IMG/VR virus record: IMGVR_UViG_3300035670_000014 | Coordinates: 106,949-170,948 of that record | Length of the DNA: 64,000 bases | Reading direction: 5' to 3' (one strand) | DNA from: a virus | In this document: positions 1 through 6,263 of the stretch, piece after piece | How the letters are laid out: each line of letters begins with the position of its first letter | Position numbering within the stretch: position 1 is the stretch's first letter | Made by a program: the position numbers and the translations under genes | The notes under the pieces: generated by a model | What the model was told of the DNA's origin: nothing | Seen by the model: only the letters and a program-made list of their open reading frames with translations | Databases searched by the model: none

Positions 1-795
1 AATAACATCAGGCTTGTTGTATTTAGTTTGTTGACTCTTAGGATTCCAAAGGAATGATTCTCCCTTTGGGTTCCATACTTCGTTGATCTTATGAAGCTGC
101 TCACTATGGGTGAGCATTATGACTTCACAAGCAAGTTGATCTTTGGCCTTCTGAGATAAAGTTGAATCAATAAGCTGGAAAAGCTTAATCCAGTCCTGCC
201 TGGCACCAGGATAAAGAATCACCGGACTAAAGTTCAAGTGAACTTCATAGCCGGCATCAACAAGTTGATTGATTGCATTTATTCTTGCTGATATTTGACT
301 AGTCCTGATGTCAACATATTGGGATATAGATTGAGGCATAAGGCTATACCTTATCCTTACCCTATCCCCAGGATCAAAAGCCAGTAGAGGGGCAATATTG
401 ACCGTTTTAGTAGCAAAGCTAACCTTAGCATTCTCGCTGTGCTTAACAGCTTCCATTATTTCCAGTGGAATGTTGGAAATCATAAGGTCAAGGCTTACAT
501 CATTGTTATTACCAATGTCATAAGTCCAATACTTGGAATCACACTGATTAGGTTCAAGCTTAGGACCCAAAGAGTTAGAATGAGAAATTATAGAATCTAT
601 AACATCATCTGTATTAACAAATATAGTAACAGGATTAGAACCACCCTTTCTACGAGCCGTATAACAGTTGTGAGTTAGAATATTTTCAGCAAAATAATTT
701 TCATAAACAGGAACATGGAAATTATAAACAGTCGTATTTTTTTCAATTTTCTTTATACTTTGAATTTTAGAAAACTTAGGAGTTTTAAGTTGCAT
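1..795 (-). CDS. Split-intein C-half (43 aa) fused to C-extein of spore photoproduct lyase-family radical SAM protein; runs off window edge
   Basis: Not in ORF track (no stop in window). Manual translation from ATG 795: MQLKTPKFSKIQSIKKIEKNTTVYNFHVPVYENYFAENILTHN|CYTARRKGGSNPVTIFVN...SFATKTVN...RIRYSLMP...DIRTS...AGYEVHLNFSPVI...LACEVIMLTH; intein block F/G ending HN-C at 672-664. Confidence 0.9.
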   Translation of the reverse strand, partial: MQLKTPKFSKIQSIKKIEKNTTVYNFHVPVYENYFAENILTHNCYTARRKGGSNPVTIFVNTDDVIDSIISHSNSLGPKLEPNQCDSKYWTYDIGNNNDVSLDLMISNIPLEIMEAVKHSENAKVSFATKTVNIAPLLAFDPGDRVRIRYSLMPQSISQYVDIRTSQISARINAINQLVDAGYEVHLNFSPVILYPGARQDWIKLFQLIDSTLSQKAKDQLACEVIMLTHSEQLHKINEVWNPKGESFLWNPKSQQTKYNKPDVI

Positions 796-1626
796 AACTG
801 TTCTGTTTGTGGAAAGTTTACTAATAAAAAATGCTGTGAAGAAAAAGTATTCCTAGAGAAAGGTTTAGTATTTAACTATCACAGTGAAGCTGCAAGATAT
901 TTTAATGTAGATTCAAGATATGCAAAAAGAAAACTCTATAATGTAAACTATACTTTAAGTGAAATAAAAATAACAAAAAACAGCAAACTAGTTAATTGTA
1001 AAATTTGCAATCAATCATCAATAACTTCAAAATGTAGAGCTGGATATTGTAAAAATTGCTCTCGTAAAGGATTAGGTAAGAAAACTAGAGGAATAGAATT
1101 AAGAAATAAATACCTTGGAGAGAAAAATCCAAACTTTAAAGATGGTAAAGCAAGGCAGTCGATAAGAAACAGACATGAATGGAAAGAAATAAGAAAAGAA
1201 ATTCTTTCAGAAAGACAATGCTGTGAAGTAAGTGGACATAGTAAATACTTACATCTTCATCATATATTGCCAGTTTGCTTATTTCCACAATATTCATTAG
1301 AAAAATGGAACATTATTGTTCTTCAGGCTAATCTACACATAGAAGTTCATCGTCAAGATTTAGATATTGTGCTTCTACCCAACCTCTGTTCTTTGTATAA
1401 AGAGGATGTTCACCTGATACGCGAAGAGTTCGTCCGTCAACTGAAATTTCATAAATTTCACTTACTTGACGAGATGCCAAATGAAAAGCTTGAGCTACTA
1501 AAGGAGAACCAGAATTGGTATCGTAAGAAATTACATCTGATCCCGATAGAATTTGTTCTACAGGAATTTGGCCACTTGGAGTGGATATCAAAGTTCCTTC
1601 TTCCACGCAGTAGAGGCAAGAACTAA
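715..1626 (+). CDS. HNH homing endonuclease, antisense between and overlapping the split-intein halves
   Basis: CxxC pairs, GEKNPNFKDGK (NUMOD3-like), CEVSG...LHLHHILP...NIIVL...HIEVH HNH signature; start codon uncertain. Confidence 0.8.
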   Translation: MEIINSRIFFNFLYTLNFRKLRSFKLHNCSVCGKFTNKKCCEEKVFLEKGLVFNYHSEAARYFNVDSRYAKRKLYNVNYTLSEIKITKNSKLVNCKICNQSSITSKCRAGYCKNCSRKGLGKKTRGIELRNKYLGEKNPNFKDGKARQSIRNRHEWKEIRKEILSERQCCEVSGHSKYLHLHHILPVCLFPQYSLEKWNIIVLQANLHIEVHRQDLDIVLLPNLCSLYKEDVHLIREEFVRQLKFHKFHLLDEMPNEKLELLKENQNWYRKKLHLIPIEFVLQEFGHLEWISKFLLPRSRGKN

Positions 1627-1918
1627 AACAGCCGTTTGCATGAGACGGCGGAATAAAATCAGTTGACCTTCCAGAATCAGTCATTGCCATATTAGACATA
1701 CGACCAATAACAAGAACATGTCTTTTATTTGCTATCCAATCTACAGGATCGGCCTTAGCTAAATCTGGAATAAGCCAGTGATTCTTAACATATTTAACTT
1801 CATAGTTAGAGCCAGAATCTGCAAGCTTTTGACAGATTGATGTGATTCTAGATATTTCCTTTTCACTATAATTACAATTCTGTATATAAAGAGTATTTAT
1901 ATCACTCAGTTTAATCAC
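1328..1918 (-). CDS. N-extein of spore photoproduct lyase-family radical SAM protein fused to split-intein N-half (93 aa)
   Basis: HWLIPDL...KRHVLVIG...GRSTDFIPPSHANGCFSSCLY then intein block A CVEEGTLISTPSGQIPVEQI (starts 1609), block B LRVSGEHPLYT, GWVEAQYL, stop; probable GTG start 1918 after AAGGGGA. Confidence 0.9.
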   Translation of the reverse strand: MIKLSDINTLYIQNCNYSEKEISRITSICQKLADSGSNYEVKYVKNHWLIPDLAKADPVDWIANKRHVLVIGRMSNMAMTDSGRSTDFIPPSHANGCFSSCLYCVEEGTLISTPSGQIPVEQILSGSDVISYDTNSGSPLVAQAFHLASRQVSEIYEISVDGRTLRVSGEHPLYTKNRGWVEAQYLNLDDELLCVD

Positions 1919-1941
1919 TAGGTCCCCTTGGTTGGTATTAA

Positions 1942-1960
1942 GAAAAGGCCCCAAGGGGCC
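1942..1960 (-). terminator. Short GC hairpin plus T-tract, probable intrinsic terminator
   Basis: Minus strand GGCCCC-TT-GGGGCC-TTTT. Confidence 0.45.
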
Positions 1961-1968
1961 AGATAGAG

Positions 1969-2517
1969 TTAAGACTGATACTCAGCAAGTAAATTCCTTA
2001 CACGCTGAATTTCTTCTAGTGTATGAGGAGTACCTGTAGCGTTGATTCGTAGGTATAACATTAGCCGATCTGCAGGACTTAGGTCAACATACATAATCTT
2101 AACTTCCGTCTTGCGATATAGCTGTCGAATGTCCTTATCATCAAACTCATGTACATAAATGTTCTCGCCGGTAGTCGGTTCGATTGCCGGGATGTTACCA
2201 AGCATCCAATGGTACAGCGAAAAGAGCCGATGTTGCCCATCAATGATCTCCATATGATCATCGTAGATGTTTCGATTGATCCAGCATGGAGGACAGAATC
2301 CTCCAGTAATCATACTTCCGACAAAAGCACTAGCTTGATATACAGTCCAAGTATGATTTCGTTGATAGTCAGGGACTACCCACTTTCGATTAGGATCATC
2401 TGGACTACCTGCAAATCCCTTTTGTATCTCAAACAAGTTAGCATGCGACTCAACAACAAAAGGCAATGGTTTAAAGATAGAATCAAATGATCTTTTGATT
2501 AGAGTTGAAGCTGTCAT
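1969..2517 (-). CDS. DUF262 (ParB/Srx-fold, GmrS-like) domain protein
   Basis: PDYQRNHTW, IIDGQHRL, RINATGTP motifs. Confidence 0.8.
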   Translation of the reverse strand: MTASTLIKRSFDSIFKPLPFVVESHANLFEIQKGFAGSPDDPNRKWVVPDYQRNHTWTVYQASAFVGSMITGGFCPPCWINRNIYDDHMEIIDGQHRLFSLYHWMLGNIPAIEPTTGENIYVHEFDDKDIRQLYRKTEVKIMYVDLSPADRLMLYLRINATGTPHTLEEIQRVRNLLAEYQS

Positions 2518-2527
2518 GTTTTAGATT

Positions 2528-2851
2528 TTAGCCTTTAATTTTAGTATTTAAAGCACTAATATTTGTTCTTTCAGGGATAGAAGTACTATACCAAGTACTA
2601 TATTCATCTAGAATATAAGATAGAGAATTAATAAATAAAGATATAGAAGGATCGAAACTATAAGTATTATCAAGAGTCATACTTAAGCCTAGATTTGAAA
2701 TTCTATATCTTGCATAAAGAACTCTATCAATAAAAATGCTTAACTCTCCGGTACCATAGTCTTCAAATAAGATTCCTGAATCTTGGTACTTGAAGAAGTA
2801 TGAAAAGAGTTTCTGAGTTACAGTTCTGCTTATAGGTAAAGTTTTACTCAT
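2528..2851 (-). CDS. hypothetical protein
   Basis: ORF with AAGG RBS in minus-strand run. Confidence 0.55.
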   Translation of the reverse strand: MSKTLPISRTVTQKLFSYFFKYQDSGILFEDYGTGELSIFIDRVLYARYRISNLGLSMTLDNTYSFDPSISLFINSLSYILDEYSTWYSTSIPERTNISALNTKIKG

Positions 2852-2883
2852 TTTTACCTTAATATAGGTTAGATTTAGTTAAG

Positions 2884-2958
2884 TACGCCTGGAAGGATTC
2901 GAACCTCCGACCGATCGGGTAGAAACCGATTGCTGCTATCCAACTGAGCTACAGGCGC
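2884..2958 (-). tRNA. tRNA-Arg(TCT)
   Basis: GCGCCTG/CAGGCGT acceptor, ATCGG-TTTCTAC-CCGAT anticodon arm, GGTTCGAATCC T-arm. Confidence 0.9.
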
Positions 2959-2994
2959 ATGAATAATGGCACTTAATATAAATTAAGTTAAGAT

Positions 2995-3348
2995 TTAGTG
3001 GTCAGGATAGTAGAGCATATCCTCAAAGAGATAAGGATCATCAAACGGCTCTTCTTGGGTAATAGAGCCATCAGGGTGAACTTCAAAGTGATCATGAATT
3101 GACCAAATTGAAGAATCGTTTACCAGAGCTCTAAGGTGCTTAAGGATTTGAGCATCCGTAAGCTGATTGCATGCTACATCTTCAAGAAAGATAGAAAAGT
3201 CAATTGACTTATCGCCCTTAATTGACCTGATATAGGGTGCCCTGACGTAGATTACAATTTCAGCATCTAAATCTACAGCAAGTTTACGGGCATATTCAAA
3301 TGCCTCAGACTTAGTAGTAAAAGTATTACCATTAACTAAATACTTCAT
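2995..3348 (-). CDS. hypothetical protein
   Basis: ORF with GAGG RBS. Confidence 0.65.
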   Translation of the reverse strand: MKYLVNGNTFTTKSEAFEYARKLAVDLDAEIVIYVRAPYIRSIKGDKSIDFSIFLEDVACNQLTDAQILKHLRALVNDSSIWSIHDHFEVHPDGSITQEEPFDDPYLFEDMLYYPDH

Positions 3349-3366
3349 AAGGTAACCTCTAAGGGT

Positions 3367-3585
3367 TTAGTTGAAAGATGTAAGTATATCTTGCACGTCA
3401 AGGAGGCAATCAATAGTATCCTGATGGGTAGGATTACTCATTTTCATAAGTAAGTCTATTCTATCAAGAGCTTTAGTGATTGTAGACCTGATAGGGCTAC
3501 CATTTATTTTCATTTCAGTTACAGCTTTAATCAAAGCCGAAATATCTTCAGGAGATAAAGCAAACCTGTAGTCGGTTTCGGTCAT
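3367..3585 (-). CDS. hypothetical protein
   Basis: ORF with GGGGA RBS. Confidence 0.6.
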   Translation of the reverse strand: MTETDYRFALSPEDISALIKAVTEMKINGSPIRSTITKALDRIDLLMKMSNPTHQDTIDCLLDVQDILTSFN

Positions 3586-3661
3586 AGTTCCCCTATTATT
3601 TTAGAAATAAAAGCCCAACTAAACCCAAGATTAAAAGGATCTAGTTGGGCAGTTATTTGAA

Positions 3662-4063
3662 TTATTCTGAGTCAGACTCAGAAGACTCCAGAGCACCTAG
3701 CATGGGGAGTGCAGAACGCACACTTTCCATGAGGGGCTCGGCTACATCACGTCCTACAGCCTCAGATACAAGACTTGCAGCCTGACGGGCTGTACGAGCA
3801 GTACGACCAGTAATTAGGTTTGTATCTGCTGCCATTGACAGAGCCATAGCACCAAGAAGCTTAACAGCAGCACGGCCGTAAGGATTCTCGAGAACTACAT
3901 CTGCACTTTCACCAAGTAGGCCACGGCCTACCTGAATAGCAACTTCTGATGCCTGATTGGCAACACCGACCTTGACTCCGTGACGGAGGCCAGAGGCGAT
4001 TGACTCAAGAGAATTTGAAACTGGTGAACTGCCAGGAGCAGTTCCGATAGTGATTGTAGCCAT
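3662..4063 (-). CDS. hypothetical Ala/Gly-rich protein (likely start MATITIG)
   Basis: ORF followed by terminator-like hairpin 3607-3650. Confidence 0.65.
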   Translation of the reverse strand: MATITIGTAPGSSPVSNSLESIASGLRHGVKVGVANQASEVAIQVGRGLLGESADVVLENPYGRAAVKLLGAMALSMAADTNLITGRTARTARQAASLVSEAVGRDVAEPLMESVRSALPMLGALESSESDSE

Positions 4064-4505
4064 TTGTTTATTTTTCCATGGAGGTTGTTTTAGTATGAAT
4101 TTTATATAAGAATAGACTTGTCTGATCAAGTAAGATTTTAATACTTGTCTGTATTTAAATAATAAGACACGGGTTTACTTAATTAGACAATTTGAACTTT
4201 TAGTAAGATTAGTACCCGACTAGTGCTTTGTTTTAGCTTTTCTATTATTTTTTGTTCTAGTCGTGGGTGAATCTATAGTCTTACTATTAGTTCTTTGATC
4301 TACGCTTGTTGCAAGAATCCGATTGATCAAATTGGATCCAAGCTCAATCAAATTAAAACGGACCGAAAAGGTGGCGGGGCCAACCTTTAGAGTTGTAATG
4401 TTACTAAGTCTGTTGTTTTTTAACATAAGCATATCCTGGTAGGACTTACACTACAGATTGCCGGAACGGCAACAGGGCAGTTAAGCAAGTTTCCTTTAGG
4501 AAAAT

Positions 4506-4793
4506 CTACTTAGAAATTTCAATTTGGCCATTGAGAATGCAAACAATGGGATTGATAGATCTAGATAGTATGCCATTAAATGTCTCTTCGGTCATTGAAA
4601 CAAACTTCGCAGATTTAGGTAAGCAATCTGTAAGTTTAATTTCGTTAAGGTGAAAAGCATATATAGATTGTGTTCCATCTTGTGCTCTTAGAATCAGGTG
4701 GTAATTTTTAGCTGATAAGTTGGATAAAAATGAAATATCATTAGTTTTAGAATGGGAAAAGTAACTATTGGCAAGTTTTATCGAATGATGCAT
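4506..4793 (-). CDS. hypothetical protein
   Basis: ORF packed directly after HD gene. Confidence 0.55.
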   Translation of the reverse strand: MHHSIKLANSYFSHSKTNDISFLSNLSAKNYHLILRAQDGTQSIYAFHLNEIKLTDCLPKSAKFVSMTEETFNGILSRSINPIVCILNGQIEISK

Positions 4794-4803
4794 TTTTAAC
4801 CTA

Positions 4804-5592
4804 CTAACTTAAGATTAACACTCGTCTATTCCATCGAGATAAGAAAGGAGTAGCTTGTTGGTTTTCTTTGTATTCCGTAATAAAGGAATGGGACAAACCA
4901 TAGCAATCTTGAAGAAAGGACATTACTTCAACCTCCGAAGGAGGGTTGGCTTTTATATCAAGAATATTAGACTTAAATATAGGTCTTTTTATAAGATACT
5001 TATTAACTAAAGTGCCTGACTCAAAGTATGGTTCAAGACTGAATTTGATTGCATAAAATGTTGAACAGAAAGCCTGATAAATAATATCAACCTTTTCATC
5101 TTTAACTTCATTTTTTAGATCAAATCCTGGTAAAGGAATGACTAAATCTTCAAAATGAAAAGCTAAATTATCAACTTTATGTACTAAATCATTAGCTTTG
5201 ATTCCTAAGTGATTATAGAATGAAAGCCTAAGATTCTCAATTGCCAGGTGGGCATTGTCACTCAGATGCTTTTTAACAGGAGTAATAATGTCACCAGTAA
5301 CAGATTCTTCTACATCATGAAAGAGGCATTCATCTATAAAATCTTCATAGATTACTTGGCCCTTTCTGTTTAAGACAACATTCATTGCACTAAACATCTT
5401 AGTAGCAATGAGGTAGCAGAATATACAATGCTGAAGTACACTGTACTCAGCTCTTTGGCCAGCAAATCTGTTAATTCTACTTAAAGTTGCTTCAATAAGC
5501 TCAGGCTCAACTTCTTCAACAAATTTCCTGATTTGACTGTTATCAAATAAATCAAAGTGAGAATAGTTGAGACCATTTAGTATAAATGGCAT
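4804..5592 (-). CDS. HD-domain phosphohydrolase (YfbR/YfdR-like 5'-deoxynucleotidase)
   Basis: LSRINRFAG...YSVLQHC...LFHDVEESVTGDIITPVK. Confidence 0.85.
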   Translation of the reverse strand: MPFILNGLNYSHFDLFDNSQIRKFVEEVEPELIEATLSRINRFAGQRAEYSVLQHCIFCYLIATKMFSAMNVVLNRKGQVIYEDFIDECLFHDVEESVTGDIITPVKKHLSDNAHLAIENLRLSFYNHLGIKANDLVHKVDNLAFHFEDLVIPLPGFDLKNEVKDEKVDIIYQAFCSTFYAIKFSLEPYFESGTLVNKYLIKRPIFKSNILDIKANPPSEVEVMSFLQDCYGLSHSFITEYKENQQATPFLSRWNRRVLILS

Positions 5593-5621
5593 TATCCAGG
5601 TCTCCAGGATTGTAGAGTAAG

Positions 5622-6263
5622 TTAAGATTCTTCCATTGAAAGAAACTCTACATTATTCATTTTGTGTTTAATTGTAGACTTCAAGTTTGGAAAAACTTCA
5701 AGTACCTGATCAATAAGCTGCATTCTGACTTTAGACCTAAGACCAGATGAATCAAAGTTAGTAGGCTCCTCAAAGTAAGGAACGCCTTTTCTATCGCACC
5801 AAGAGATTAGTTCAATCTTTGGAGTTGAAAGAACAGGCCTGGAAATGCCCATAGAATGATTTACAGTGGGCATTAGCTTGGGATTGCCTCCAGAGAATGA
5901 AGACATAATCCAAGTTTCTACTTGATCATCCAGGTTGTGAGCAGTATGAACGTAAGCCATATCATACTGTCTCCTTAGAGCAGAGAAAGCAGAATACCTC
6001 TCATTTCTCCAGTATTCGTACCAAGATTCAGATGATTTCTTGGAAGATTGATTCTTGGAGCAATGAAGTGTGATCTTGCGATCATTACAATAAGATTCAA
6101 CTAAATCTTGTAGATAGTTACAAGAATCTGCACCATGATTATGGTGAAAAGCTATTACTTGTTTCTTTCGAGAAAGAAAATCAAGTAATGCCATTGAATC
6201 AGGACCGCCGCTGACAGCAACAAGAACACTATTATTTGGAGTTGGCCGAAGGAGTTTGATCAC
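5622..6263 (-). CDS. tilS: tRNA(Ile)-lysidine synthase, PP-loop catalytic domain only
   Basis: VAVSGGPDSMALL, RNERY, TAHNLDDQVET, RPVL, PTN...RSKVR. Confidence 0.85.
   Translation of the reverse strand: MIKLLRPTPNNSVLVAVSGGPDSMALLDFLSRKKQVIAFHHNHGADSCNYLQDLVESYCNDRKITLHCSKNQSSKKSSESWYEYWRNERYSAFSALRRQYDMAYVHTAHNLDDQVETWIMSSFSGGNPKLMPTVNHSMGISRPVLSTPKIELISWCDRKGVPYFEEPTNFDSSGLRSKVRMQLIDQVLEVFPNLKSTIKHKMNNVEFLSMEES

Follow-up and report, generated by a model that had tools for sequence, protein, structure and literature searches.

A fractured radical SAM gene and its inserted cassette

The DNA analysed here, referred to as the window, is a stretch of 64,000 nucleotides (nt) from IMG/VR virus record IMGVR_UViG_3300035670_000014. 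It spans bases 106949-170948 of a contig of 170,948 bp, which is complete and carries direct terminal repeats. The virus is a tailed phage, with genes for a terminase large subunit and a major head protein, and the GC content is 44.5%. Over the first 39 kb of the window, the genes are almost all encoded by the minus strand. At the very start of the window, a gene for a DNA-repair-type radical SAM enzyme of the spore photoproduct lyase (SPL) family is present as two minus-strand open reading frames (ORFs), an N-gene (1918..1328) and a C-gene (from 795), which retain their original order and orientation at one locus and are separated by 532 nt. The break is bordered by the two halves of a predicted split intein, of which 93 amino acids (aa) end the N-product and 43 aa open the C-product. 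Between the halves is an HNH-type endonuclease gene on the opposite strand, overlapping intein-N, so that its plus-strand frame (790..1626) spans the 532 bases between the halves and intein-N in full. On sequence evidence, the locus is best described as an SPL-family radical SAM gene fractured by a split mini-intein at the third cysteine of its CxxxCxxC motif. The feature is real and conserved, and is a variant of the fractured-gene class described in 2009 (Dassa et al., 2009; PMC2677866). The coordinates of intein-N (1609-1331) and of the C-ORF beginning at 795 with intein-C (795-667), proposed in an earlier sequence-only reading, all hold on re-reading. The same is true of the opposite-strand HNH gene and of the antisense position of its last catalytic motif, whose His codons lie at 1336-1338 and 1348-1350. 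The features of the locus are as follows.

1..666, minus strand: C-extein of the SPL-family radical SAM enzyme, 253 aa, with its last 96 bases before the window start (L001:1405-1500)
667..795, minus strand: predicted intein-C, 43 aa from ATG 795, ending His-Asn, matched by Pfam Intein_splicing
777..781, plus strand: AGGAG resembling a Shine-Dalgarno motif, 8 nt upstream of the HNH start codon TTG 790, read from the sequence
790..1626, plus strand: free-standing HNH endonuclease gene, 278 aa from TTG 790, with the longest ORF from ATG 715
1328..1626, both strands: dual-coded antisense overlap of 299 nt, indicated by the open frame in copies, by resampling and by position-3 diversity
1331..1609, minus strand: predicted intein-N, 93 aa, with Cys1 and block B S-x-x-H, followed by the stop codon 1330..1328
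1610..1918, minus strand: N-extein, 103 aa from GTG 1918, matching TIGR03886 over profile positions 26-94

The N-gene has an in-frame GTG at 1918 with AAGGGG 5 nt upstream, its longest ORF beginning at TTG 1954. The N-extein ends with the first two Fe-S cysteines (CxxxCxY) and matches the model TIGR03886, 'spore photoproduct lyase family protein' (E 1e-16, 61 bits). The C-gene, which extends 96 bases beyond the window start (L001:1405-2295), encodes a product of 296 aa in total. The first codon of its C-extein (666..664) specifies the +1 Cys, which is followed by 252 further residues. This C-extein scores 317.8 bits against TIGR03886 (profile 90-346) and 1.8e-17 against Pfam SPL, and it also matches the PDB SPL structure 4fhg (2e-9), where the +1 Cys pairs with the third cluster cysteine. 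The CxxxCxxC cluster motif is complete only once the two exteins are joined, and neither half alone reaches the TIGR03886 cut-off of 437.55 bits, whereas intein-less homologues exceed it at 492-518 bits. A scan of IMG/VR with the C-product as query returned 80 loci. In the intein-less loci among them, N-extein residue 103 directly adjoins the +1 Cys inside one ORF. The comparison with intein-less SPL homologues, which the sequence-only reading had suggested as a check, thus finds the gene contiguous exactly at the proposed junction.

The longest ORF of the HNH gene runs from 715 to 1626 on the plus strand. Its protein contains Zn-ribbon-like CxxC pairs, an HNH core (residues 157-187) and a helical tail (residues 188-278), and matches PHROG HNH families at 1.5e-8 and 4e-8. 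The catalytic residues H157, H158, N174, H183 and H187 are invariant across 19 diverse members of the family. An AlphaFold2 model of the protein has a mean predicted local distance difference test (pLDDT) score of 79, with the tail predicted as helices at 85-90 over residues 191-220 and at 86 over residues 251-260.

The likely start of the HNH gene is TTG 790 and not ATG 715, because the TTG is preceded at 8 nt by AGGAG (GGAG or GAGG stands at a like distance before many genes of this phage), aligns with the Met of all relatives and coincides with the start called publicly and independently for a protein of 98% identity, and because the intein-C of relatives varies most at position 3, as single-coding sequence does. 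A start at ATG 715, which is without a Shine-Dalgarno motif at usable spacing, would overlap intein-C by 81 nt. In contrast, TTG 790 adjoins the ATG of the C-gene (793-795, other strand) with no overlap. The two start codons are ATGs overlapping as CATG in the main clade of relatives and in L123, and lie 29-215 nt apart in other lineages. The HNH gene had been described in the sequence-only reading as doubly overlapping. Its overlap with intein-N is supported as coding, whereas coding overlap with intein-C was rejected, since the likely HNH start abuts the C-gene ATG and intein-C evolves as single-coding sequence.

Distribution, probable mobility and predicted splicing

A scan of IMG/VR with the single HNH sequence returned nothing, and a profile built from an HNH alignment was needed; with it, all 37 of the 37 viral loci recovered were found in the same SPL context. 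About 40 further viral contigs, which come from different samples and sources, share the layout. When 1.84 billion protein representatives were searched, the result was about 25 clusters that carry the full-length HNH protein including its tail, while more distant HNH proteins aligned only up to the catalytic core. The genomic context was examined for seven cluster representatives (L119, L121-L126). In L119, L122 and L123, three of these and each a deeper lineage, the SPL gene is fractured in the same way, and the overlap measures 260, 251 and 335 nt respectively. In a fourth (L121:497-2589), a cassette of intein-N, antisense HNH and intein-C lies at CxxxCxx|C of a different radical SAM enzyme, with an overlap of 323 nt; the best match of this host is AmmeMemoRadiSam-like or glycyl-radical-activase-like, below cut-off. 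Therefore, the element or its nuclease seems to target the cluster motif rather than one gene family. Two others (L125:1303-3292, from a 267-kb contig, and L124:1-941, on a 955-nt fragment), both AT-rich, carry a free-standing HNH gene that is divergent from, and directly upstream of, an intact SPL gene and has no intein opposite. Within the genome of the window itself, where a second cassette or a further intein was sought, this locus alone was found. A megablast search of window positions 1-6000 against GenBank phages gave zero matches.

On a quick maximum-likelihood tree built from 85 distinct C-exteins, alleles with the cassette interleave with intact ones. Parsimony requires 15 changes on this tree, and the branches with good support demand a minimum of 5 gains or losses. 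By identity, the closest extein relatives of the window gene are the intein-less L002-L004 (L002 51%), and the exteins of the main cassette clade are 35-39% identical to it. One syntenic pair has the site filled and empty: the genomes of L028 (cassette) and L076 (intact) are collinear and 73-77% identical, and at this point L028 carries a clean insertion of 962 nt, delimited by the Cys1 and Cys+1 codons. Between the two C-exteins, identity is 91% overall and 100% over the first 74 nt past the junction, a flank that resembles a co-conversion tract, as homing would leave. The interleaved alleles and the filled and empty pair make the element look mobile, and on these comparisons the cassette is very probably a mobile element.

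The role proposed as most likely for the HNH protein is to cut or nick alleles without the intein in co-infecting relatives, after which repair would copy the cassette in. This proposal is made because of the patchy distribution and the one filled and empty syntenic pair. The nuclease might instead no longer home, being kept for competition between phages or for antisense control, with the patchiness produced by recombination and loss alone. Free-standing nucleases of phages often act in marker exclusion, and nucleases of this same family do stand alone beside intact SPL genes in L125 and L124, as such a role would allow. The conserved catalytic residues and target-adjacent position speak for homing, as do the identical flank of the filled and empty pair and the insertion of the cassette into this motif in another radical SAM family as well, and a nuclease that has ceased to home is considered unlikely, although the idea retains some weight.

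Intein-N starts at a Cys, has S-G-E-H as block B and bears a net charge of -9. Its sequence matches in the PDB are a bacterial intein-like domain (2lwy, 1.3e-8) and the NrdJ-1 split intein (8ubs, 1.7e-6). Intein-C has a net charge of +3, with +5 over its first 20 residues, and matches Pfam Intein_splicing over profile positions 120-155 (E 2.8e-5). Cys1, T/S-x-x-H, the terminal HN and Cys+1, the residues of a class 1 intein, are invariant in 31 of 31 distinct copies. Across these copies the charge ranges from -9 to -16 for intein-N and from +3 to +7 for intein-C, an opposite pairing of the kind described for cyanobacterial split inteins (Dassa et al., 2009; PMC2677866). The gene is fractured in all 15 cassette loci of one comparison and in all 37 of another. 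Two word-based protein searches for unsplit forms gave one unrelated multi-Hint protein and one near-identical C-half, which is weak evidence that unsplit forms are absent.

These features point to trans-splicing. The gene halves would be translated separately, and the acidic intein-N and basic intein-C would associate and then splice in trans, joining ...CxxxCxY to C... to give a 356-aa enzyme with an intact CxxxCxxC motif. The same third-Cys site is used in the radical SAM families concerned, so the activity of the enzyme would depend on splicing. Alternatively, the halves could form an active enzyme with no covalent joining, the intein fragments serving only for docking, or the split gene could have lost its function. 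An enzyme in pieces is known from the NrdA of phage Aeh1, split by an HNH gene and working without splicing according to its citation in Dassa et al. (2009). Both variants are nevertheless improbable for the present gene. All splice residues are invariant in the 31 copies, although the enzyme itself needs only Cys+1, and the exteins of relatives are under ordinary purifying selection, with position 3 far more variable than positions 1 and 2 and the ORFs intact in about 40 copies.

Antisense coding opposite intein-N

The last 99 codons and the stop of the HNH gene lie opposite the stop of the N-gene, the 93 codons of intein-N and the final 5-6 of the N-extein, a 299-nt overlap that includes the codons for the last two catalytic His residues of the nuclease, antisense to the 3' end of intein-N. 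HNH position 1 is opposite intein position 1, 2 opposite 3 and 3 opposite 2. This relation is identical in both clades and is the most constraining one. The HNH frame is open across intein-N codons 10-98 in 30 of 30 distinct relatives. The antisense frame was free of stops in 29 of 29 copies bearing the HNH gene and in 0 of 22 control inteins; these controls are related intein-N sequences that lack this HNH, and they carry 1-8 stops there (mean 4.7). When intein-N was resampled with synonymous codons, 4.5-5.8 stops were expected in the antisense frame, which stayed open in 0.36% of trials for the window (P = 0.0036) and in 0.02-0.2% for relatives. Because openness is so rare under resampling, the arrangement is far beyond chance.

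Synonymous variation is suppressed in the overlap. Among 29 relatives, position-3 diversity is 0.49 in the N-extein and 0.43 in intein-N codons 1-9, falls to 0.07 in the overlapped codons 10-98, and is 0.25 in intein-C and 0.44 in the C-extein (overlap 0.07 against 0.38, Mann-Whitney p = 2e-18). In the HNH gene itself, position-3 diversity is 0.30 in the part beyond the overlap and drops to 0.115 within it (Mann-Whitney p = 3e-12). The switch in synonymous diversity falls within a few codons of the HNH stop. In the HNH tail, the conserved motif L-D-I-x-L-L-P-x-L is encoded antisense to G-W-V-E-A-x-x-L, a motif conserved in the intein (window 1358-1384). Together, these comparisons show that the overlap is true dual coding, with selection acting in both frames. 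A chance ORF in the antisense frame was rejected on three counts, namely the stops in the 22 controls, the rarity of an open frame under resampling and the suppressed synonymous variation.

A subtler possibility is that the HNH protein ends soon after its last His, and that the open antisense frame is an untranslated by-product of the conservation of intein-N. Conservation of a protein carries over in part to the translation of its antisense strand, and distant relatives of the HNH align just to its core, as this would predict. The explanation is very unlikely, however, when it is set against the stops that all 22 related intein-N sequences without this HNH carry in the frame, against an open frame in at most 0.4% of resampling trials, and against intein-N synonymous sites that are frozen only under the HNH frame and free again near the HNH stop. 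In addition, the free-standing relative L125, with no intein opposite, keeps a homologous tail that scores 26.8 bits against a hidden Markov model of the cassette tails, compared with a shuffle maximum of 7.0. An assembly artefact, in which the middle segment of a contiguous intein with an in-frame HNH domain was inverted, had been named in the sequence-only reading as fatal to its proposal and is as good as ruled out so far as sequence comparison goes, since more than 40 assemblies, made independently from different samples and sources, agree in orientation and frame relation, the HNH gene possesses a start codon and a ribosome-binding site of its own, and inversion cannot produce the overlap.

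Overall, the locus is thus quite probably a mobile fractured-gene cassette in a phage gene of the SPL family, combining trans-splicing, dual coding and a homing HNH nuclease. The cassette would consist of intein-N, an inverted HNH homing-endonuclease gene and intein-C, placed exactly in front of the third Fe-S cysteine codon. The HNH gene would be read from the other strand, back-to-back with the start of the C-gene, with its last ~90 codons antisense to intein-N. Such an overlap would tie the nuclease to the intein, as a deletion or frameshift in the 3' part of the HNH gene would also destroy intein-N and hence the host enzyme.

Several points weigh against this interpretation. Splicing, nuclease activity, the target site, transcription of both strands and the overprinting history considered below are all inferred from sequence. 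The relatives in the diversity test form one clade, so that their sites are not fully independent, and low synonymous diversity could in principle stem from constraint on RNA or DNA and not from translation. The C-gene is without a Shine-Dalgarno motif, and a consensus scan gave 9 promoter-like sites against 10.2 expected, so that promoter assignment failed. The curated Pfam and TIGR intein models all score under their cut-offs (PT-HINT 25.9 against 27.7 bits, Hint_2 23.4 against 28.4, Intein_splicing 20.1 and 24.4 against 35.8, and TIGR01445 22.4 against 24.5 for intein-N), as is expected because the queries are intein halves. The HNH protein had zero matches to HNH models in Pfam and NCBIfam. 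Its AlphaFold2 model was built on an alignment of small depth (19 sequences), and in Foldseek the top matches of this model, all to HNH nucleases, were weak (E 0.085-1), with nothing in the PDB at E <= 0.001.

The origin of the overlap can be addressed more tentatively. The helical tail of the HNH protein, about 90 residues long, may have been born by antisense overprinting of a pre-existing intein-N, in which case the free-standing forms L125 and L124 would be escapees that kept the tail. This is the simplest history, because intein-N has homologues among inteins that lack an antisense gene of this kind, and its chances are put at somewhat below even. If it were true, a protein domain would have been born opposite a self-splicing element. 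The nuclease and the intein would then be mutually dependent, which could block the usual decay of the nuclease after fixation of the element.

Relation to known systems and additional observations

Fractured phage genes with free-standing endonucleases were already known, as the sequence-only reading had stated, and the published loci match this class. Twenty-six fractured genes with GIY-YIG or Vsr-like nucleases have been reported, with overlaps of 6-69 bp between the 3' end of the nuclease gene and the start of the downstream gene, and HNH genes were predicted to be able to fracture genes too (Dassa et al., 2009; PMC2677866). The present locus is similar in its two ORFs in order and orientation, in the intein halves at the break with an endonuclease gene between them, and in its setting, which in both cases is phage or metagenomic; its intein-N resembles NrdJ-1. 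Unlike those loci, it has an HNH gene that is inverted and shares ~280-300 nt of antisense dual coding with intein-N, and its host is a radical SAM enzyme cut inside the cluster motif. The terms 'opposite strand' and 'antisense' are absent from the text of Dassa et al. (2009; PMC2677866).

The SPL-family host had been called unusual, but it is less so than that view suggests. Forty-eight contiguous inteins have been listed in SplB/COG1533 of Actinobacteria (Novikova et al., 2016; PMC4760082), and the alignment to NCBIfam NF038136, 'intein-containing Rv2578c family radical SAM protein', starts ~8 residues before Cys1. Therefore, an intein at this site of the superfamily is not new. The matches to NF038136 are weak (E 2e-8 and 2e-3) and do not by themselves establish orthology of the inteins. 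The two kinds of intein share the host superfamily and probably the insertion point. The actinobacterial ones are single-polypeptide and cellular, whereas the present one is predicted to be naturally split, is phage-borne and has a separate inverted HNH gene. The unusual traits are thus the HNH type, the inverted orientation and the long dual-coded overlap.

The nrdA gene of Aeromonas phage Aeh1, split by a free-standing HNH gene of the mobE type (Friedrich et al., 2007, as cited in PMC2677866), likewise has an HNH homing-type gene between the halves of a phage enzyme gene. As far as that citation describes it, the Aeh1 gene differs in having no intein, in the co-transcription of its three genes from one strand and in halves that assemble without splicing.

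The position of the HNH gene between the N- and C-terminal splicing blocks is the usual one for an intein endonuclease. Some inteins carry an in-frame nested HNH endonuclease domain, and such inteins are reportedly the subject of a 1997 paper by Dalgaard. In those inteins the nuclease is part of the same polypeptide, whereas the present intein is split and its nuclease is encoded separately, on the opposite strand. In the open-access literature, no description was found of a radical SAM split intein, of an inverted HNH gene or of an antisense overlap between nuclease and intein.

To our knowledge, well-supported long antisense overlaps of two protein-coding genes are rare in phages and bacteria. 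The present overlap is a good test case for the origin and persistence of such arrangements, since diverged copies exist by the dozen, negative controls occur naturally and the boundary is sharp. It also suggests a way in which a homing nuclease may lock onto its intein and avoid loss. The fractured-gene class would be extended by an inverted HNH gene and by insertion at the third Fe-S cysteine in at least two radical SAM families. Compact natural split inteins would be added as well (93+43 aa, Cys1/Cys+1, charge-complementary, NrdJ-1-related and available in many variants), with possible use in protein ligation.

Upstream of the N-gene, window positions 1969-2517 (minus strand) encode a 182-aa protein that has only the N-terminal DUF262/GmrSD_N (ParB-like) domain (Pfam 2.6e-13). 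One further feature lies between this gene and the N-gene.

1947..1960, minus strand: GC-rich hairpin with a T-run, terminator-like

The evidence for this terminator is weak, a consensus scan having given 1 site (this hairpin) against 1.1 expected.

Several observations concern the relatives. In their intein-C (e.g. L008:1119-1238), position-3 diversity is 0.25 against 0.44 for the exteins, although the segment is not dual-coded; the region may hold a promoter or ribosome-binding site for the divergent HNH gene. Many more split intein-N relatives occur in other phage genes without this HNH (L168-L208), where the ORFs end 1-11 codons past the match, and these are probably further fractured genes of the classical kind. 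In L126:700-1112, the intein-N antisense to the HNH protein P0016 has an in-frame stop at the conserved G-W Trp and its C-side looks disrupted; either this copy is decaying or its host reads TGA as Trp. Public gene calls for L119, L121, L122 and L123 list the HNH gene and the C-half and omit the N-gene because it overlaps the HNH call, and such fractured genes are therefore systematically under-annotated. Finally, a single contig (L012:2553-2636 and L111:4352-4435) contains a second N-extein-like fragment (residues 77-104), ~530 nt upstream of the real N-extein, which may be a duplicated remnant.

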